A DNA stretch of 61,058 bases from an uncultured Akkermansia sp. (GTDB taxonomy: Bacteria; Verrucomicrobiota; Verrucomicrobiia; Limisphaerales; UBA9464), in contig CAYLTF010000001.1 of NCBI GenBank assembly GCA_964386625.1, positions 1 through 61,058 of the forward strand, given 5' to 3'. The position numbers and the translations under genes are program-made. Below the pieces are notes generated by a model, which was not told the origin of the DNA, did no database searches, and worked only from the letters and a program-made list of their open reading frames with translations. Shown here piece after piece: positions 1,203-10,016 of the stretch; within the stretch, counting starts at the first letter, position 1, and each line of letters starts with the position of its first letter.

Positions 1203-4200
1203 CTATTCGCCGCGCAGCGCGGCCAGGAGTTCGCCTCGGCAGGCCTGTCGGGTGGCCATCCAGGTCCAGAGGAGTCCGTTCATGAAGACGGCCCCCAGGA
1301 TCCCTGCCAGCGAGGCCCAGGGCAGTTGTCGGGCGTCGGTGGTCCAGACCGGGGCCGCCGCCAGGGACGAGGCCAGCACGCCCAGCAGGAGTCCCCGCGT
1401 CAGCAGCCGCAGGTGCTCGGACAGGATCATGGATCGGATCCGGGCCTTGGAGAATCCGACGGCGGCCAGCAGGGCCAGTTCACCCCGCCGCTCCAGGACG
1501 TTCCGCTGCACGACCAACCCCAGCCCCACGCTGCCGAGCAGCAGGCCGAGACCACCCAGCCATTGGAAGGTGTTGAGATAGGTGTTCTGGACGGCGTTGA
1601 AACGGTTCAAGCGGTCCTCGGTGGTCGTGGTCTCGAGGCCGAGATCGCCCATGCTCCGGGTCAGGGCCTCCGCGACGGGCCGGGAGGGTCCCTCGGTGTC
1701 GATGAGGAAGGCCCGGTAGCCGTTCTCACCCGGGAAACGTCGAATGAATTCCGCCTCGGAGATCAACAACTGCCCCTGGAGGATCGAGTTCGCCACGGCC
1801 CCGACCAGTCGGACCCGGAACGGGCGGCCGCGTTCGTCGACGTAGTCGAGCGTGTCGCCGATCTTCTTGCCGAGCGCCCACTGGATGGAGTTGGCATCGC
1901 CGATGGCCGGGATCGGCTCGTCGTCCGAGGCCTTCGAGACGAGCCCCATCCAGGGATGATCCTCGGGGACGCCTGCCGCCCGCGACTGGAAGGTGAAGGC
2001 CTTGCGGGCGTCCAGGAGTTCCGGGCGGACTCCGAGCAGGCGGGGCCGCTGGGCCCGGTTGAGGTTGAGGCAACTGGCGTCGTCCCCCTCGCGGACTCGC
2101 ATCGGCACCACCGACATGCCTCTCAAGACCTGCGGGTCCAGCCCCAGTCGTTCCTGGCCTCGCGGGGTGTCGAGGTCCTCGATCACCGGCATCGAGGACA
2201 CCGCCCAGAGACTGAAACCACCGGTGCCCGACCCGCGGTTTCGGGCATCGCGCGAAGCGTCGAGACGGTTGGCCGCCACGGCCACGATCAGGAACACCGC
2301 CACTGCCAGCAGGCTGATGACGGCGGCCGAGCGGTTGGGTTGGCGGGCCGGAGCCCGGGAGTGGAGCTCGGATCGCGTGGCGGCCACCGACCCGGTCCCG
2401 GATCGCCGGAGGCGCCGCCGTTGGAACAGCAGGGCTGCCGTCAGCAACAGGGCCCCGGCTCCGAAACAATGGCCCGGGCGCACGGCCGCGTCGGCCTTCC
2501 AGGCGAGGAAGGTCAGGGCCGCCGACCCCGACAGGGCCGACATCGGCCAGAATGCCGAGATCGACCGCCCCAGGCCGGCGCCCACGGCGGCTCCGTCGTG
2601 GAGAAGTTCGCGGGGACTGCGCCGCACGAGTTGCCGCAGGGCCCGCCGTTGGGTCCAGCCGACCATCAGCACGGCGGCCAGCCAGCCCCCGGCCATCGAG
2701 GCGGGAGCCGGATGGAACTCCAGGGAGGCTCCGGCCACGGCGTCTTTCCAGAGGGTGTTCAGCCCCATCAGGACCGCCTGCCCGTAGAGGACTCCGCCGC
2801 CGATCCCGACCGAGGCGCCGAGGACCGCGAGCACGAGTCCCTCCCGGAACAACAGCCCCGAGGTCGCCTTCGGGGTCCAGCCGAGGGCCAGCAGCGTGCC
2901 GACCTCGTGGACCCGCCGTTCGATGCCGAAGCGGAAGACCAGGTTCAAGAGAAGCAGCGCCGACACGATGAGAAAGAAGCTGAACCCGAGGAACAGCCCC
3001 CCGAAGTCCTGCCCGCCCCGGGCCGCGGCCAGCGCCGATGCGGTGAGGGGTTGGAACCGCAGTCCCAGTTCGGCCGGTGGAATCCCTCGCTCCAATCCCT
3101 GGGTGATTCCGCGGGCGAGGGTGGAGGCGTCCCAGAACTCCCCGGTGAACCAGCGGACGCCGGTGGCGTCCCCGAATCGATTGGCCCACATCCGCCGGCC
3201 GGCCGACAGGGTGATGAAGGCCTTGGGGGTGCCTCGCCATCGCTTCCAGTAGGCCTCGTCCTTGTCGCGGATCTGCCGGCTCAATTCGAAGCCTGCATCC
3301 CAGTCCTGGGTGCTCTCGGCCTTGGACAGGCCGGGAAACTCGGGCATCAGGGAACGGTCGGCATGGAGACCTTGCATGGGGACGATGGCTCGCACGCGGA
3401 ACCGGTGGGTCTCCTCCACCAGGCGGGCCCCCGTGTCCACCCGGTACGACAGCACCGACACCAGATCCCCGGGCCGCGCGGAAAGGTCTTCGGCCAGCCA
3501 GGAGTTGAGCAGGATCTCGTCATCGGCCATGCCTTCGGGTGTGAAGGGTGGACCGGCCGCCGTGACCATCGAGTACGGGGTCGATCCGGATCCGGATTCG
3601 ATGGCGTTGGCCAGGTAGGTCAGCACCGGTACCGGCCTGGGGAGCCCGGCAGGCAGGCGGTCCAGCGCCCGGGTGACCACCGGATCGAGGAAGATCCGCC
3701 GACTGACCAGTTCGACCTGCGTGGGAGGGGCCTCGGCGACCCCGGCCGCGGGTGGAGCGGACCGGGCCGGCCGGACCTCGAGTTCGGCATCGGCCAGGCC
3801 GAATCCCTTCTCGACCATCGAGGACAAGCGCTCCGCGGTGAGGGGCGTGCCCGAGGGGCCCAGCAGGGCGAGGTTGGCCCGATCCACCAATCCGGCCGCC
3901 TTGGCCAGGGTGGCATGGGGGATGAAGAGGTTGAACGGCGGCAGCGAGCCGGCCTCGGGCGAGAAATCGCCCCACTCGTCGGCCCTGAGAATGCGAGACA
4001 CCCGGACCCGCAGGGCGGTGCTTGATCCGTCCCGGGGCGAGATGACGGCATCCTGGGACAGCGCCGAGGGCTTGTGGATGCGCAGCACCAGTCCGTCACC
4101 GACGCCGACCGACAATTGCCGGGCCAAGGCTTGGTTCACGGCCACTGCGTCGTCTCCGACTCCGTCCAGGGGAGATGGGCATGGCCGCGGACCGAGGGCC

Positions 4201-4556
4201 CAGAATTCGCGCGGGACGCCGTGCACCCGGACCTGATTGGCCCGGGCGGTGCCATCTTGTCGCGAAACCACGCCCGGCAGGCGGAGGGCGAAGGTCGTCA
4301 AGGCGTTGGACAGCCCGGTCCCGGCCGGCCCGCCGTTGCGGGCGGCGAAGAAGCGGTCCCCGGCATCCAGGATGTGTTCTGCCCGGCCGATGCGATCCAT
4401 CGCGCGGCGGCGGAGGGTCTCCCGCACCGAATCCCCGACGGTGAGGGCCCCGATCAGCACCGTGGCGGCCACGGCGGCCGCCAGCACCACGCCGAGGTGA
4501 TGACGCGCGTGGAAGGCCAGGCTGCGTCGCCGCAGGAGGGCAGGGGTGATCTTCAT
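1203..4556 (-). CDS. Duplicated FtsX-family ABC transporter permease (MacB/YbbP-like), with no adjacent ATPase gene
   Basis: 1117 aa. It has an N-terminal TM helix, a large periplasmic domain and a TM bundle, and then repeats that arrangement. The C-terminus (LELALLAAVGFSKARIRSMILSEHLRLL...) is typical of FtsX domains. No Walker-motif ORF lies on either side. Confidence 0.85.
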   Translation of the reverse strand: MKITPALLRRRSLAFHARHHLGVVLAAAVAATVLIGALTVGDSVRETLRRRAMDRIGRAEHILDAGDRFFAARNGGPAGTGLSNALTTFALRLPGVVSRQDGTARANQVRVHGVPREFWALGPRPCPSPLDGVGDDAVAVNQALARQLSVGVGDGLVLRIHKPSALSQDAVISPRDGSSTALRVRVSRILRADEWGDFSPEAGSLPPFNLFIPHATLAKAAGLVDRANLALLGPSGTPLTAERLSSMVEKGFGLADAELEVRPARSAPPAAGVAEAPPTQVELVSRRIFLDPVVTRALDRLPAGLPRPVPVLTYLANAIESGSGSTPYSMVTAAGPPFTPEGMADDEILLNSWLAEDLSARPGDLVSVLSYRVDTGARLVEETHRFRVRAIVPMQGLHADRSLMPEFPGLSKAESTQDWDAGFELSRQIRDKDEAYWKRWRGTPKAFITLSAGRRMWANRFGDATGVRWFTGEFWDASTLARGITQGLERGIPPAELGLRFQPLTASALAAARGGQDFGGLFLGFSFFLIVSALLLLNLVFRFGIERRVHEVGTLLALGWTPKATSGLLFREGLVLAVLGASVGIGGGVLYGQAVLMGLNTLWKDAVAGASLEFHPAPASMAGGWLAAVLMVGWTQRRALRQLVRRSPRELLHDGAAVGAGLGRSISAFWPMSALSGSAALTFLAWKADAAVRPGHCFGAGALLLTAALLFQRRRLRRSGTGSVAATRSELHSRAPARQPNRSAAVISLLAVAVFLIVAVAANRLDASRDARNRGSGTGGFSLWAVSSMPVIEDLDTPRGQERLGLDPQVLRGMSVVPMRVREGDDASCLNLNRAQRPRLLGVRPELLDARKAFTFQSRAAGVPEDHPWMGLVSKASDDEPIPAIGDANSIQWALGKKIGDTLDYVDERGRPFRVRLVGAVANSILQGQLLISEAEFIRRFPGENGYRAFLIDTEGPSRPVAEALTRSMGDLGLETTTTEDRLNRFNAVQNTYLNTFQWLGGLGLLLGSVGLGLVVQRNVLERRGELALLAAVGFSKARIRSMILSEHLRLLTRGLLLGVLASSLAAAPVWTTDARQLPWASLAGILGAVFMNGLLWTWMATRQACRGELLAALRGE

Positions 4557-4872: not shown

Positions 4873-5595
4873 ATGATCATCTCACTCGGGATTCTCGCCT
4901 CCTCCCAGGGCGGCACCGACCTCGGCTTCATCTGGAACAAGGCCACCCCCGAGGCCAAGGTGATCATCGTCATCCTCGGCATCTTCTCCATCGTGGCCTG
5001 GTCCCTGATGATCCAGAAGTTCTTCCAGATGCGGCGGGCCACCAAGTACAACGGGTTTTTCGAGGCCGAATTCCGCCAGCAAGAGGGCGTCCTGGGCATC
5101 TATGATCGTCGCCTGCCGGTCGAGGGGTGCCCGCTGTTCTCCGTGTACACCGACGGATGCACCGACCTGGATGCCCGGTTGAAGCTGCCCGACGGCTCCC
5201 GTCGCACCCGCCTTTCGATCAAGAGCATCGAACACGTCAAGCGCCAGGTCGAAGGTGCGGTGGCCCGTGAGTCGCTTCGACTGGAGTCGGGCTTGATCCT
5301 CCTGGCGATCGCCGTCAGTGGAGGTCCCTTCATGGGCCTGCTGGGCACGGTCTGGGGCGTCATGGACACCTTCGGCGGCATCGCCAAGGCCGGTCGTGCC
5401 GACCTGACGGCCATGGCCCCCGGCGTTTCGGCCGCGTTGGTCACCACCGTCGCCGGTCTGCTCGTCGCCATCCCCTCCATGTTCGGCTACAACTACCTGG
5501 TGCACACGCTGCGGGTGCTGACCGTCGAGTTGGACAATTTCGCCCAGACCCTGGCGTCGAAGATGGAGACCGAGTTCCTGCCCGATGATGAGTGA
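4873..5595 (+). CDS. tolQ: MotA/TolQ/ExbB proton-channel protein (TolQ by context)
   Basis: Contains GLLGTVWGVMDTFGGIA and ALVTTVAGLLVAIPSMFGYNYL, the signature C-terminal TM helices of the TolQ/ExbB family. Start set at ATG 4873 (MIISLG...) rather than the track start 4771. Confidence 0.85.
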   Translation: MIISLGILASSQGGTDLGFIWNKATPEAKVIIVILGIFSIVAWSLMIQKFFQMRRATKYNGFFEAEFRQQEGVLGIYDRRLPVEGCPLFSVYTDGCTDLDARLKLPDGSRRTRLSIKSIEHVKRQVEGAVARESLRLESGLILLAIAVSGGPFMGLLGTVWGVMDTFGGIAKAGRADLTAMAPGVSAALVTTVAGLLVAIPSMFGYNYLVHTLRVLTVELDNFAQTLASKMETEFLPDDE

Positions 5596-6445
5596 CCGGG
5601 ATTCCCAATCGTCTGCGACCCGGACGGAGGAGACCCCGCAGTCCGCGCGGGGAGTCCTGTGCCCGGATTGCGACCGGTTGAACCCCATCGACCGCGACAC
5701 CTGCAACTATTGCTCGAAGCCTCTGTTCGTCGATTGTCCGTCCTGCGCGGCGACCAACGAACGGGTGCTGACGCTGTGCCGCCGCTGTGGTGGGGCCTTG
5801 GAGAAGGGGTTCCTCTCGGGCCTCCTGGGATCTCGCCCGGCCCCGGAGGTCGCCCCGGCCCCGCGCCGACAGGAGCCCTCGGGACCCATGGGGAAGGGAA
5901 CCCTCTGCTGCAAATGCGAGCGCCTGAACCCATCCGACCTCGAGCGTTGCGAGCGTTGCGGCGAGGCTCTGCATGTCGATTGCCGGCAATGCGGGAAGCG
6001 CAATCCGCGGGTGTTGATGCATTGCACCTCCTGTCGCGGGCGGTTGCATCGCGGCTCGCATCACCATTCCCACCACGGTGCAAGCCATGGCAATCCTGGC
6101 CACTCCCACACCCCCGACCCGGGGCATTCCCCGGTTCCGGCCTCCACCGGTCCCACGGTGTGCGCCAAGTGCACGCATCCGAATCCTCCGGGGCTGCAAC
6201 GGTGTGAGCAGTGTCGCGGACATCTGTTCATCGTGTGCCGCGATTGCGGCTCGACCAACGCCCGTACCGAGCCGCGTTGCTCGAAATGCAACCGGAGACT
6301 GCACCGGTCCATCAACGAGCGGTTGGATCCGCTGGGGGCCAAGGCTGTTTCCATGAAGTGGGTCTATGCGATGGGGGCGGTCCTCCTGCTGGCCCTGGCC
6401 TGGTTCGTCCTGGTCCAATTCTCCGGCCTCCGGATCTTCGAATAA
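5585..6445 (+). CDS. Membrane-anchored protein with three double zinc ribbons (six CxxC...CxxC sites), a His-rich linker and a C-terminal TM helix
   Basis: Three units each contain four CxxC pairs: CPDC/CNYC/CPSC/CRRC, CKC/CERC/CRQC/CTSC and CAKC/CEQC/CRDC/CSKC. There is an HRGSHHHSHHGASHGNPGHSH linker and a C-terminal VYAMGAVLLLALAWFVLVQF helix. Third-position GC bias is strong. The start overlaps the tolQ stop by 11 nt and the stop is 2 nt before the tolR ATG. Confidence 0.75.
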   Translation: MMSDRDSQSSATRTEETPQSARGVLCPDCDRLNPIDRDTCNYCSKPLFVDCPSCAATNERVLTLCRRCGGALEKGFLSGLLGSRPAPEVAPAPRRQEPSGPMGKGTLCCKCERLNPSDLERCERCGEALHVDCRQCGKRNPRVLMHCTSCRGRLHRGSHHHSHHGASHGNPGHSHTPDPGHSPVPASTGPTVCAKCTHPNPPGLQRCEQCRGHLFIVCRDCGSTNARTEPRCSKCNRRLHRSINERLDPLGAKAVSMKWVYAMGAVLLLALAWFVLVQFSGLRIFE

Positions 6446-6447
6446 CC

Positions 6448-6876
6448 ATGCGCCGCTTTTCCCAACGCAATTCGTTGGTCACGCTCAACGAGATCAACGT
6501 CACCCCATTGCTGGACCTGGCGTTCGTGCTGCTGATCATCTTCATCATCACCACGCCGGCGCTGGAGCCCGGCATCAGCATGAAGCTGCCCGTCGGTGGC
6601 GACGCCCGGACCCGCCCCGACACCAACAACGAGGCGACCATCAGTGGATTGGCCGAAGGGCGGTACACCTTCTCGCGGACCGGTTCCCGGGTCTTGAGCG
6701 AGCGGGAGCTGGAGACCGAGTTGTTGAAGGCCTACCGCCAGAATCCGAACCTGGTGCTGGTGCTGCGGGTCGAGGGTTCCGCGCCGTCTCAGGTGCTGGT
6801 CAGCCTCCTCGACATCGCGGGTCGCAACGGCCTCACCCGTTATCGCATCGGAACCCAGCTTCCCAAACGGCGATGA
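6448..6876 (+). CDS. tolR: ExbD/TolR biopolymer transport protein
   Basis: EINVTPLLDLAFVLLIIFIITTP is the N-terminal TM with the conserved Asp, followed by a periplasmic domain (LVLVLRVEGSAPSQVLVSLLDIAGRNGL). Start at internal ATG 6448 of track ORF 6211..6876. Confidence 0.85.
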   Translation: MRRFSQRNSLVTLNEINVTPLLDLAFVLLIIFIITTPALEPGISMKLPVGGDARTRPDTNNEATISGLAEGRYTFSRTGSRVLSERELETELLKAYRQNPNLVLVLRVEGSAPSQVLVSLLDIAGRNGLTRYRIGTQLPKRR

Positions 6877-7859
6877 TCTCCTCGAATTCCAGATATCTTC
6901 TGACCTCCGTGGGCATCCATGCCGCGGCGGTGGGGTTGCTGGTCTTCGCGCCCGCCTTGTCGTCGCGCACCGTCCAGGATGCGCCCAGTCCGATCCTGGA
7001 GATCATTCCTGACAACCTCCGGTTGACCGACGGCAATACCATCGGCGGTGGCAATCCCGAGGCGCGTCCGCCGAAGGGCGGTCCGCAGCAATCCAGCCCG
7101 CAGCCCCCTCCGCCCCAACCCGAGCCGCCCAAGCCGGAGCCTCCAAAGACGGAGCCTCCCAAAACCGAGCCCCAGACGCCGCCCAAGGCCGAGCTGGTGC
7201 AGCCTCCCAAGAAGAGCCTCGCCACCGAGATCCAACGCAGCAGCCCCAACGTGCCCAAGGCCCAGGACGTGGATCCCGCCCTCTCGACCAAGAAGCAGAA
7301 ATCCTCCAAGGCCGACTTCCAATTGGCCGAGGCGCCCAAGAAGCGCTCCAAGAAGGACATCGAGGCCGATCGCAAGGAGGCCGCCGCCGCCGAGGCCGCC
7401 GAGGAGGCGCGCGAAGCCCGCGAACATCAGGCCCGGGTCGCCGCGGCGCGGGAGGCCTGGAACCGGGCGCAGCAAGCCCGGGCCGATGCGGTGCGGGGGG
7501 CTGCTTCGAGTCTCGGCAAGAACCTCTCGGGTTCCACCTCCTTCGAGATGCCCGGTCCCGGCGGGGCCGCCTATGCGCCCTACGGGTCCTACCTGATGGC
7601 CTTCTACAAATTGCGGTGGAAGAAGCCCACGACGCTCAGTGTCGATCATGGCGTGGTCGAGGCCGAGATCACCGTCCAGCGCAACGGCCGTGTCTCGGCG
7701 TTCCGCCTGGTGAATCCCTCCGGGATCCGGGCCTTGGACGACTCGGTCCGCGAAGTGCTCGACCGCAACCGAGACCTCCGGCCCCTGCCCGAGGGCACGA
7801 CCGATCCGGAGCGTCGGATCACCATCCGCTTCGACCTCTCGGCCGCCTCTCCGACCTGA
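6873..7859 (+). CDS. TolA/TonB-family energy transducer (TolA position)
   Basis: N-terminal TM helix (LLTSVGIHAAAVGLLVF), Pro-rich PEPPK-type linker, Lys/Ala/Glu-rich helix, and a TonB_C-like C-terminal domain (VEAEITVQRNGRVSAFRLVNPSGIRALDDSV). Its ATG overlaps the tolR TGA (ATGA). Confidence 0.75.
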   Translation: MISSNSRYLLTSVGIHAAAVGLLVFAPALSSRTVQDAPSPILEIIPDNLRLTDGNTIGGGNPEARPPKGGPQQSSPQPPPPQPEPPKPEPPKTEPPKTEPQTPPKAELVQPPKKSLATEIQRSSPNVPKAQDVDPALSTKKQKSSKADFQLAEAPKKRSKKDIEADRKEAAAAEAAEEAREAREHQARVAAAREAWNRAQQARADAVRGAASSLGKNLSGSTSFEMPGPGGAAYAPYGSYLMAFYKLRWKKPTTLSVDHGVVEAEITVQRNGRVSAFRLVNPSGIRALDDSVREVLDRNRDLRPLPEGTTDPERRITIRFDLSAASPT

Positions 7860-7927: not shown

Positions 7928-9085
7928 ATGCTCCGTCACCGATTCCTCACCCTCGCTCTGGCCCTGGGGATTTCCCTGGGCGCCTCCGCCGCCGAAGTGG
8001 TCGTCAGCGACGTCACCAGCCGCGCCGTTCCCATCCACGTCACAGGTTTTTCCGGGGACGCCAAGACGGTCCTCGAATTCGACCTCTACGTCGCCGGCTT
8101 CGACCTCGTGGCCCCGGGGCAGGCTCAATATTCGCTCAATGGCAAGGCCGCCGCCGCCCTGGAAGGGGTGCTGTCGGATGTCAACAACAAGGCCACCCTT
8201 TTCAATCGGTCCTATCCGGGCGGTTCGGCCCGGGCTCAGGCGCATGCCTTGGCCGACGATGTGGTGCAGGCCATCACCGGCCGCAAAGGCATCTCGAGGA
8301 CCAAACTGGTCTTCAAGGTGCAGAAAGAACGCGTCAGCGAGGTCTACGCCAGTGACTTCGACGGGGCCAATCCGGTCCAGTTGACCGCCGACGGCAACAT
8401 CGTGGCGGCTCCCGCCTGGCGGCCCGGTCGCAAGTCCATCGTGTACACGAGCTACCGAGCCGGGAATGCCGACATCTATTCCCAGGACCTGACCACCGGC
8501 GGTCGCAAGGCGCTGGTGCGCTTCTCCGGCTCCAACATCAGCCCGGCGCCTTCGCCCGACGGTTCCAAGCTGGCCATGATCCTCAGCAAGGCCGGCAGTC
8601 CGGATCTCTGGGTGGGCGATGCCGAGGGGGGGAGCCCCCGCCGGTTGACGACCACCGCGGCCGACGAGTCGTCGCCCTGCTGGTCTCCCGATGGATCCAC
8701 CCTGTGCGTGGTGTCCCGCGAGAGTGGATTCCCGCAGTTGTACACGATTCCCGCCGCGGGGGGCACGATGCGCCGCCTCACCACCGCCGGGGTGCGCAAC
8801 ACGACCGAGCCCGATTGGTCTCCGGACGGCAAGTGGATCGCCTTCACCCGTTCCCGGGGCGATTATTTCGACATCTGCATCGTTCCCGCAGCCGGCGGGG
8901 ATGCGAAAGTGATCACGGAAGGAGAGGATCCCTCCTGGGCCCCGAACTCGCGCACCTTGGTTTTTGCGCGTCGGACCAGCAAGTTCGGCCCTCGCAAACT
9001 GTCGCTGCTTGACTGGCCGACGGGCCACGTCAAGGATATCGCGCAAGTCGCGGGCAGCAGCTCTCAGCCTAGCTGGAGTCGTTGA
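7928..9085 (+). CDS. tolB: Tol-Pal system beta-propeller protein TolB
   Basis: Signal peptide MLRHRFLTLALALGISLGASAA. Repeated PAWRPGRKSIVY / PAPSPDGSKLAM / PCWSPDGSTL / PDWSPDGKWIAF propeller blades. Start at internal ATG 7928. Confidence 0.9.
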   Translation: MLRHRFLTLALALGISLGASAAEVVVSDVTSRAVPIHVTGFSGDAKTVLEFDLYVAGFDLVAPGQAQYSLNGKAAAALEGVLSDVNNKATLFNRSYPGGSARAQAHALADDVVQAITGRKGISRTKLVFKVQKERVSEVYASDFDGANPVQLTADGNIVAAPAWRPGRKSIVYTSYRAGNADIYSQDLTTGGRKALVRFSGSNISPAPSPDGSKLAMILSKAGSPDLWVGDAEGGSPRRLTTTAADESSPCWSPDGSTLCVVSRESGFPQLYTIPAAGGTMRRLTTAGVRNTTEPDWSPDGKWIAFTRSRGDYFDICIVPAAGGDAKVITEGEDPSWAPNSRTLVFARRTSKFGPRKLSLLDWPTGHVKDIAQVAGSSSQPSWSR

Positions 9086-9157: not shown

Positions 9158-9808
9158 ATGAAGCCGTTTTCCAAATTGGGTTCCCTTGCCCTCGTGGTCG
9201 TCCTGTCCCTCGCCGCCGGATGCAAGAAGGGGCAGAAGAACTACACCCCGCTGCCGGGTTATTCGGGCACGCCCGGAGCCTCGTCGGGTCTGGGCAAGGG
9301 GCAGCCGATCCTGCCGCCCGCCCGTCCGTTGACCCCCGATGGCGCCGGCTCCAATGGTGCCGATTCGGTCAACCGGGTCGACAATCCCGATGGTCCGAGC
9401 GGTCAGCCGTCGCGGGAAGAGATCGAGGGAATGCTGGCCAATCGCGAGCAGTTCAAGGCCAACACCGTGTATTTCGACTACGACAAGTCTGTGGTGAAGG
9501 CCGAGGGCAAGGCCAACCTCCAGGCCGTGGCCACCTATCTCAAGGCCCACTCCGACAACAAGGTGGCCATCGAGGGCCATTGCGATGAGCGAGGCACCGA
9601 AGAGTACAACCGTGCGTTGGGCGAGCGTCGTGCGCTTTCGGCCCGGGACGCCCTCATCGGTCTGGGCATCGGTGCCGACCGCGTCGTGACGCGCAGTTTC
9701 GGTGAAGACAAGCCGGCGGAACTCGGCCACGACGAGGCGGCCTGGAGCAAGAATCGCCGAGCCGAGTTCATCCTGCTGACCCCGCCTCCCGCGGGTGGCC
9801 TTCGCTGA
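9158..9808 (+). CDS. pal: Peptidoglycan-associated lipoprotein (OmpA-like C-terminal domain)
   Basis: Lipobox LSLAAGC. The OmpA/Pal domain reads VYFDYDKSVV...IEGHCDERGTEEYNRALGERRALSARDAL...NRRAEFIL. Confidence 0.9.
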   Translation: MKPFSKLGSLALVVVLSLAAGCKKGQKNYTPLPGYSGTPGASSGLGKGQPILPPARPLTPDGAGSNGADSVNRVDNPDGPSGQPSREEIEGMLANREQFKANTVYFDYDKSVVKAEGKANLQAVATYLKAHSDNKVAIEGHCDERGTEEYNRALGERRALSARDALIGLGIGADRVVTRSFGEDKPAELGHDEAAWSKNRRAEFILLTPPPAGGLR

Positions 9809-9858: not shown

Positions 9859-9890
9859 AAAAAACCCGCCCGGAAATGGGCGGGTTTTTT
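9859..9890. terminator. Bidirectional rho-independent terminator between convergent pal and aceE
   Basis: A-tract, then 8-bp perfect stem acccgccc/gggcgggt with a 6-nt loop, then a T6 tract (aaaaaacccgcccggaaatgggcgggtttttt). Confidence 0.7.
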
Positions 9891-10016
9891 CGCGTTCATC
9901 CATCCGGGCGCTCTGCCGTTGGTTCGGACTCGTGGCCCGGGCTCACCCCGCATCCGTGGATGCGGGGTGACGGGTCTTGGGACGGCCGCAAGTCGTGACT
10001 CGGCCTCGGGGCCGGC

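Follow-up and report, generated by a model that had tools for sequence, protein, structure and literature searches.

A gene for a predicted tail-anchored zinc-ribbon protein recurs between tolQ and tolR in an order of Verrucomicrobiota

We analyzed a 61,058-nucleotide stretch of DNA (hereafter the window; positions 1 to 61,058 of contig CAYLTF010000001.1, assembly GCA_964386625.1) from an uncultured Akkermansia sp. that GTDB places in the order Limisphaerales of the Verrucomicrobiota. In this window, an open reading frame (ORF) on the forward strand at 5585..6445, which we refer to as X for both gene and protein, lies between the tolQ and tolR genes of a Tol-Pal operon. The Tol-Pal operon of E. 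coli has the order tolQ-tolR-tolA-tolB-pal. The window carries the same five core genes, from the same families and in the same order, including a tolA with an N-terminal transmembrane (TM) segment and a TonB_C-type end, but it differs from the canonical system in having an extra gene, so that the order reads tolQ-X-tolR-tolA-tolB-pal, and in that no gene in this genome reaches the model cut-off for cpoB/ybgF. Because the NCBIfam scores for tolQ, tolR, and tolA all fall below the equivalog cut-offs of those models, these three names rest on the make-up of the operon (Table 1).

X falls outside all five Tol-Pal core families: Pfam and NCBIfam returned zinc-ribbon matches only, and those from NCBIfam were limited to weak zinc-ribbon look-alikes. 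The protein contains 25 cysteines, 12 CxxC motifs, and 15 histidines, and the Pfam DZR model (PF12773) matched it over three stretches (E 1.2e-13; 51.4 bits against a cut-off of 27.3). Each of the three units scored above the gathering threshold and has the four CxxC motifs of two interleaved Cys4 ribbons, and all three were recovered in a profile scan of the window's own genome. At the protein level the first unit is 45% identical to the second and 29% to the third, with all units falling between 29% and 45%, and no DNA-level tandem repeat was found behind them. An earlier note on this DNA, made without database searches, had described three double-zinc-ribbon units with 24-25 cysteines in a gene that overlapped the tolQ stop by 11 nt and ended 2 nt before the tolR ATG. 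The ribbon units were borne out, as was the gap, with the stop codon of X at 6443-6445 and the tolR ATG at 6448. The 11-nt overlap holds if translation begins at the ATG at 5585, relative to the tolQ stop codon at 5593-5595. However, the orthologues all begin with M-S-D, which makes the second ATG, at 5588, the more probable start. X would then have 285 aa and overlap tolQ by 8 nt, the arrangement seen at 17 of the 19 same-genus loci.

Table 1. Features of the tol operon of the window and of the protein encoded by X. Positions are those of the window; pLDDT, predicted local distance difference test score.
Feature	Position	Strand	Basis
tolQ, proton-channel subunit of the Tol motor (240 aa, ATG 4873)	4873..5595	+	Pfam MotA_ExbB E 6.4e-29; TIGR02796 tolQ best match, E 5.4e-43
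Tail-anchored triple double-zinc-ribbon protein gene (X), predicted	5585..6445	+	ORF scan, DZR x3, 286 aa, ATG start
Double zinc ribbon 1 (aa 24-74; 4 CxxC)	5654..5806	+	Pfam DZR best stretch 26-69; AlphaFold2 pLDDT ~77-86
Linker 1 (aa 75-104), Pro/Gly-rich, predicted disordered	5807..5896	+	AlphaFold2 pLDDT <50 over 74-103
Double zinc ribbon 2 (aa 105-157; 4 CxxC plus one extra Cys)	5897..6055	+	CxxC at 108, 122, 133, 147; pLDDT ~83-88
His-rich linker 2 (aa 158-189), predicted disordered, not conserved	6056..6151	+	pLDDT <50 over 156-187
Double zinc ribbon 3 (aa 190-242), ancestral unit, conserved L-H-R-S end	6152..6310	+	Best match to single-unit profile, E 2.2e-36
Juxtamembrane segment (aa 243-258) and predicted TM helix (~aa 259-281)	6311..6427	+	Hydropathy; AlphaFold2 helix 249-285
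tolR (142 aa)	6448..6876	+	Pfam ExbD E 7e-18; TIGR02801 tolR best match, E 6.3e-16
tolA-like transducer (328 aa): N-terminal TM, Pro/Lys-rich middle, TonB_C-type end	6873..7859	+	TonB_2 E 3.4e-10; TIGR02794 tolA_full E 7e-14
tolB (beta-propeller)	7931..9085	+	Pfam PD40 repeats E 4.7e-36, 5 stretches
pal (OmpA-type lipoprotein)	9158..9808	+	Pfam OmpA E 3.1e-19
Terminator-like hairpin and T-run after pal, probable operon end	9868..9895	+	Consensus scan, pattern match only

The earlier note had also seen a clear coding bias in X, and several measures agree that it is a genuine gene. GC content at third codon positions is 0.79, and an alignment with 12 orthologues, 37-76% identical to X, shows no change at any of the 24 core cysteines. 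Compared with the closest orthologue, the ratio of nonsynonymous to synonymous substitution rates (dN/dS) was 0.16 for X as a whole and 0.07 for the third ribbon with the TM helix, while tolQ and tolR gave values of 0.055 and 0.038. The linkers evolve much faster than the ribbons: linker 1 had a dN/dS above that of the ribbons in most pairs, and linker 2 gave values of 0.24-0.9 or was saturated. Although the His-rich linker that the earlier note had singled out is present in this genome (nine histidines in aa 157-189), the histidine run is missing or different in orthologues, even within the genus, and is thus not a conserved feature of the protein. Metatranscriptome contigs identical to the window cover 5467-5618, which spans the tolQ/X junction, as well as 5589-5677 and 5934-6091. 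Given their shortness, and since DNA can be present in libraries of this kind, these contigs provide only a hint of expression, and the parts of X that have no contig cover (5688-5835 and 6132-6353) carry no evidential weight. Taken together, the coding signals and the constraint on the ribbons indicate that X is a real gene under purifying selection.

AlphaFold2 modeled X as three separately folded ribbons (pLDDT ~77-88) joined by disordered linkers (residues 74-103 and 156-187) and followed by a C-terminal helix (residues 249-285). When the last unit was modeled alone with the family alignment, the mean pLDDT was 85, with the ribbon and the TM helix both at ~95. Hydropathy analysis revealed one hydrophobic stretch (19-aa windows starting at 253-268), and together with the model it places the TM helix at the C-terminus with ~5 residues beyond it. 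By prediction, X therefore fits the tail-anchored class, in which a single TM lies within ~30 residues of the C-terminus and most of the protein is cytoplasmic. Since a basic juxtamembrane stretch precedes the TM, the positive-inside rule predicts that the ribbons are cytoplasmic. Both the single C-terminal TM and the cytoplasm-facing ribbons had been suggested in the earlier note, and these analyses agree with it on the first and predict the second.

Structure searches returned only generic matches. A Foldseek search of the full X model against the PDB gave nothing at E<=1e-3, with generic zinc modules as its top rows; a VIA-align wide search with the single-unit model gave helix matches only (Z<=3.9); and the ESM Atlas matches were limited to unnamed verrucomicrobial DZR clusters. 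The closest solved chain by sequence was DZANK1, whose double ribbon matched the family profile with an E-value of 4.4e-7. Whereas Pfam DZR is a domain without an assigned function, X adds to it a basic stretch, a C-terminal TM, and a position in the tolQ-tolR slot.

The linkage of X to this slot is strong within its genus. A match to X was found in 21 of 23 same-genus genomes, and the order tolQ-X-tolR-tolA was present in all 19 same-genus loci fetched, in which tolQ is 84-97% identical. Its absence from the two remaining congeners (G013 and G016) is uninformative, because the tolQ orthologue was not assembled there. Linkage also extends beyond the genus. We surveyed the order with one genome per family, examining 57 of 60 non-window genomes, of which 56 were evaluable: tolQ and tolR lay 0-170 nt apart in 41 of these, and 13 of the 56 families had a DZR+TM ORF in the tolQ-tolR slot. 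The recurrence of homologs between tolQ and tolR, which the earlier note had raised as an idea, was therefore observed both among congeners and in other families.

A denser sample of 200 genomes from the order gave the same picture. Forty-eight genomes had a family match at E<=1e-10, and in 40 of these a copy lay directly after tolQ, as judged by coordinates. Presence was consistent within families, with four of four genomes positive in two families and none of four in many others. Packing was similarly regular: in a table of 32 rows, 20 of them from one genus, the start overlapped the 3' end of tolQ by 4-17 nt in 28 rows (8 of 12 among other families), and the stop lay 2-36 nt before the tolR ATG in 31. 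No X-like gene was found at the other ExbB-ExbD loci of the window's own genome, and across five genomes with multiple paralogues, comprising 32 MotA/ExbB matches, the zinc-ribbon gene occurred alongside the tolQ orthologue only. It is thus tolQ, and not the exbB paralogues, that the gene accompanies. The tolQ-tolR slot is the only recurring context of the family, with no other shared among 16 paralogue loci.

In other families of the order, the slot protein is shorter than X (98-152 aa): a single DZR with a conserved L-H-R-S motif is followed by a very basic stretch and by a TM at the C-terminus. We built a profile, A1, from an alignment of these single-unit, tail-anchored proteins from the tolQ-tolR slots of other families. 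The third unit and TM of X matched A1 with an E-value of 2.2e-36 and share its DZR, basic stretch, and C-terminal TM with a short tail. X is a variant of this ~110-aa family, in which a single DZR is combined with a basic stretch and a tail-anchor TM. A search of 1.84 billion representative proteins with A1 returned 401 representative clusters at E<=1e-10, while a word-based homologue search with a single-unit protein returned 2 proteins only. Among the 150 best A1 matches, 125 proteins were 95-140 aa long, and these single-unit relatives were uniform in architecture: 123 of 125 had four CxxC motifs and 124 of 125 had a C-terminal TM. The stretch leading up to the TM had a median of 8 Lys/Arg against 1 Asp/Glu, and the tail that follows the 19-aa hydrophobic core had a median length of 9 residues. 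Public annotation labels the family proteins "hypothetical" or "zinc ribbon domain-containing protein" and assigns them to metagenome-assembled genomes (MAGs) of Verrucomicrobiota.

The number of ribbon units varies across the family. Most proteins have one, while others have two, three, five (448 aa), or eight (591 aa). In the cluster of one representative (P0004), members that are at least 90% identical measure 591, 563, 438, and 314 aa, such that ribbon number apparently changes between near-identical proteins. The one-unit form of two species of the window's genus nests inside the three-unit clade, indicating that units have been lost as well. The earlier note had described the six-ribbon array and the His-rich linker for this protein; sequence comparison shows that the triplication and the His-rich linker are both genus-specific and that the ancestral form has one double ribbon.

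We found the family only within the verrucomicrobial order to which the window belongs. Of 301 genomes sampled across the phylum, 32 had a match at E<=1e-5, all of them weak except that of the window's own genome, and the 12 loci of weak matches that we inspected encoded other DZR architectures, none of them beside tolQ.

Several family members depart from the common pattern. Two paralogues (L121 2831-4093 (+) and L122 2482-3657 (-); also P0110 and P0115) have a ~190-aa periplasmic extension after the TM that has no Pfam match, and L121 and L122 adjoin DUF1501/DUF1552/PSD genes of the type found in the PVC (Planctomycetota-Verrucomicrobiota-Chlamydiota) group. A one-unit copy on a 5.6-kb contig (L026, G010:C127) is accompanied by a transposase fragment and broken genes and groups with the copy of another family at 96/86 support, so that this contig is probably foreign or mis-binned. 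In one family, a second member lies upstream of tolQ, ~3 kb away in G073 (L128 7050-7457 (-)) and, by coordinates, also in two further genomes (G444:C12:103356-103625 and G493:C188:1324-1599). The G073 copy overlaps the start of a gene for an 860-aa hybrid histidine kinase (three REC domains, HisKA, HATPase, and Hpt), which hints at a signalling link in that lineage. Two public MAG records (L061 and L063) contain close X orthologues within the freshwater-type, 67% GC tol locus that they share with the window; they are titled "Akkermansia muciniphila", a label that looks mis-assigned. Divergently encoded upstream of tolQ in the window itself (1203-4556 (-)) is an FtsX-like permease of 1117 aa with two FtsX domains.

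These observations lead us to propose, at about an even chance of being correct, that X is a lineage-specific, non-essential accessory of the Tol-Pal inner-membrane motor. According to this proposal, X would share a transcript with TolQ and TolR, its translation probably being coupled to theirs, and would be anchored in the membrane by the lone helix at its C-terminus, with no more than a few residues reaching the periplasm. One zinc-stabilized double ribbon, or three in the window's genus, would then sit at the cytoplasmic membrane face beside the cytoplasmic domain of TolQ. There X would most likely serve as a protein-protein adaptor that ties the TolQR stator to a cytoplasmic partner or modulates the assembly or activity of the stator, and the number of ribbons on flexible linkers may set valency, reach, or avidity. 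We infer that X may contact TolQ or TolR, may have a partner in the cytoplasm, and may have some effect on the motor.

A number of observations weigh against this proposal, and many of them favor an alternative that we consider possible but rather less probable: X could be a generic tail-anchored zinc-ribbon protein whose role is unrelated to Tol (envelope, lipid, or nucleic-acid) and which sits as a passenger in a permissive junction of a well-expressed operon, having spread from that site by duplication. The order sample contained ~32 full-length family copies away from tolQR, and 8 of the 48 family-positive genomes had only such dispersed copies; in the two of these eight that we inspected, tolQ lay directly beside tolR. 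Sixteen dispersed-copy loci had neighbors without a common theme, including alcohol dehydrogenase, aminotransferase, O-antigen ligase, M48 peptidase, LpxC/LpxA, Lnt, and seryl-tRNA synthetase with glycogen synthase. On the family tree (37 rows, leaving out the embedded copies L085 and L095), embedded and dispersed copies were interspersed, with 10 changes between the two states. The scatter of homologs without tolQR linkage that the earlier note had named as a warning sign is thus real in part, although the slot recurs in 40 of the 48 positive genomes.

Loss of the gene also appears to be frequent. On a TolQ+TolR tree, presence in the slot required 12 changes for 16 positive rows compared with a shuffled mean of 14.3, which implies numerous losses, gains, or relocations of the gene. 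In a sister genus of the same family, tolQ-tolR-tolA is intact, with 77 nt between tolQ and tolR and no zinc-ribbon gene. The copy in one congener (L027, G012) has an in-frame TGA at a zinc-ligand Cys codon and has lost a further Cys ligand in each of units 2 and 3, so that it is decaying or possibly reflects MAG sequence errors. The earlier note had asked after relatives in which the gene is absent or disrupted while tolQ-tolR is intact: absence was found in the sister genus, and decay in this one congener only. Based on these sequence comparisons, the zinc-ribbon gene is patchy and dispensable within the order.

The junction and the proteins themselves add to this side of the argument. The tolQ-tolR junction tolerates unrelated genes: in one family (L053 983-1417 (-), G060) a 145-aa 23S_rRNA_IVP gene (PF05635, E 6.6e-34) replaces X, and in a second (L051, G034) the slot holds a look-alike ORF that is partly masked by N and was judged by eye. 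No residue of the TM helix is conserved across the family, which speaks against a specific helix-helix contact with TolQ, itself highly conserved. We ran 1226 tests for TolQ or TolR residues that track the gene's presence; the best of them (p=2.3e-4) was not significant after correction, and the top columns, in the C-terminal tail of TolQ, have the trivial explanation that their codons overlap the start codon of the gene downstream. Neither the 150 best hidden Markov model matches nor 12 longer homologues included a fusion to TolQ or TolR, and no zinc ribbon fused to a MotA/ExbB-type channel was found in the window's own genome or in four long MotA_ExbB ORFs of G444.

What speaks against a mere passenger is the bias in where the gene sits and how it is kept. 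Of the ~72 gene copies, ~40 occupy one slot, in dozens of families, and have kept a start that overlaps tolQ and a stop that nearly abuts tolR; the gene never lies beside exbB paralogues in the five genomes examined. On the family tree, the dispersed copies of one family (f49) look as if they had recently been duplicated from the embedded copy, and the membrane-proximal unit is under purifying selection of the same strength as tolQ.

A more specific version of the adaptor proposal, in which the partner of the ribbons is FtsZ or some other protein of the divisome or cytoskeleton, so that TolQR is recruited to the septum or held there, is in our estimation improbable. In model bacteria, Tol-Pal works at the site of division, and the variable number of ribbons (1, 2, 3, 5, or 8) would suit binding to a polymer. 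According to a report on the Agl-Glt gliding motor of Myxococcus, a TolQR-like motor (PMC11135422), the zinc ribbon of GltJ is a protein-interaction module or switch and the ribbon of ZitP binds PopZ. GltJ, as described there, resembles X in being a single-pass membrane protein of a TolQR-type motor with a cytoplasmic Cys4 zinc ribbon, the cytoplasmic location in X being predicted, but it is large, its ribbon is single and ZitP-like, and its ZnR-linker-GYF region lies N-terminal of the TM. By comparison, X has no periplasmic domain, its TM is C-terminal, and Pfam detected no GYF domain in it at E<=1. A second comparison is offered by CdpC of Haloferax, which, according to a preprint (bioRxiv 10.64898/2026.07.16.738847), anchors FtsZ1, with its zinc ribbon binding FtsZ1. 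Like X, CdpC is described there as membrane-attached and fast-evolving, with zinc ribbons and a disordered linker, and its ribbon mediates a protein contact; it differs in being archaeal, in having an amphipathic-helix anchor, and in lacking a Tol-Pal link.

By analogy, GltJ and CdpC may be taken as precedents for zinc ribbons as membrane-proximal adaptors. For the septal tether, however, the case is one of pure analogy to CdpC, ZitP, or GltJ, and FtsA is present in the genome, so no anchor is obviously missing. We give a similarly small chance to the idea that X is a new cytoplasmic Tol subunit whose ribbons bind a polymer or divisome component such as FtsZ, with ribbon number, from one to eight, tuning avidity. 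If FtsZ-type binding were true, it would provide a direct cytoplasmic recruitment or control input to Tol-Pal, something achieved otherwise in model Proteobacteria.

The possibility suggested in the earlier note that X is a metal or redox sensor of the stator, in which zinc occupancy or oxidation of the Cys4 sites together with the His-rich linker switches TolQR activity, appears highly unlikely: each unit does have eight invariant cysteines and this genome does encode the linker, but CxxC-x-CxxC ribbons are ordinarily structural zinc sites, and His-based sensing has no support because the linker is genus-specific and not conserved within the genus, its histidine run being absent or different in same-genus orthologues and missing from the single-unit ancestral form. 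One paralogue from another family (L025 3224-3589 (-), G030:C16) lies between genes for a heavy-metal P-type ATPase (HMBD, YHS, E1-E2) and a hemerythrin-domain protein, a neighborhood that would suit a sensor but was the single case among 18 dispersed loci. X does not have the make-up of a TolA/TonB-type force transducer (N-terminal TM anchor, extended periplasmic linker, and C-terminal TonB_C domain): its TM is C-terminal and Pfam gave no TonB_C match; a separate tolA follows tolR.

The Tol-Pal operon and the DZR domain are already known, whereas a lineage-restricted gene for a tail-anchored zinc-ribbon protein inside tolQ-tolR appears to be undescribed. The earlier note knew of no Tol-Pal accessory with this architecture, and we likewise found no paper describing the zinc-ribbon protein of the tolQ-tolR slot in the full-text literature, a scope outside which subscription journals and supplements fall; in a term search of a 2025 survey of Tol/Ton force transducers (PMC12204202), the word zinc was absent from the text covered. 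The combination of DZR, basic stretch, and C-terminal TM in the tolQ-tolR slot is thus not a described family. To our knowledge, known Tol-Pal accessory proteins are all periplasmic or act in lipid metabolism.

If X is a passenger only, the finding is an ordinary one, adding one more uncharacterized zinc-ribbon protein of uncultured freshwater Verrucomicrobiota. On the reading that we propose, based on sequence and gene order, the order harbors a variant of the Tol-Pal operon that carries a probable cytoplasmic adaptor. Tol-Pal is a conserved envelope machine, and a conserved, translationally coupled protein predicted to face the cytoplasm raises the question of whether a dedicated adaptor recruits or regulates the TolQR stator from the inside, as for flagellar and gliding motors. 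Proteins with 1, 2, 3, 5, and 8 ribbon units, together with lineages from which the gene has been lost and with dispersed paralogues, would form a natural series for experiments on this question.

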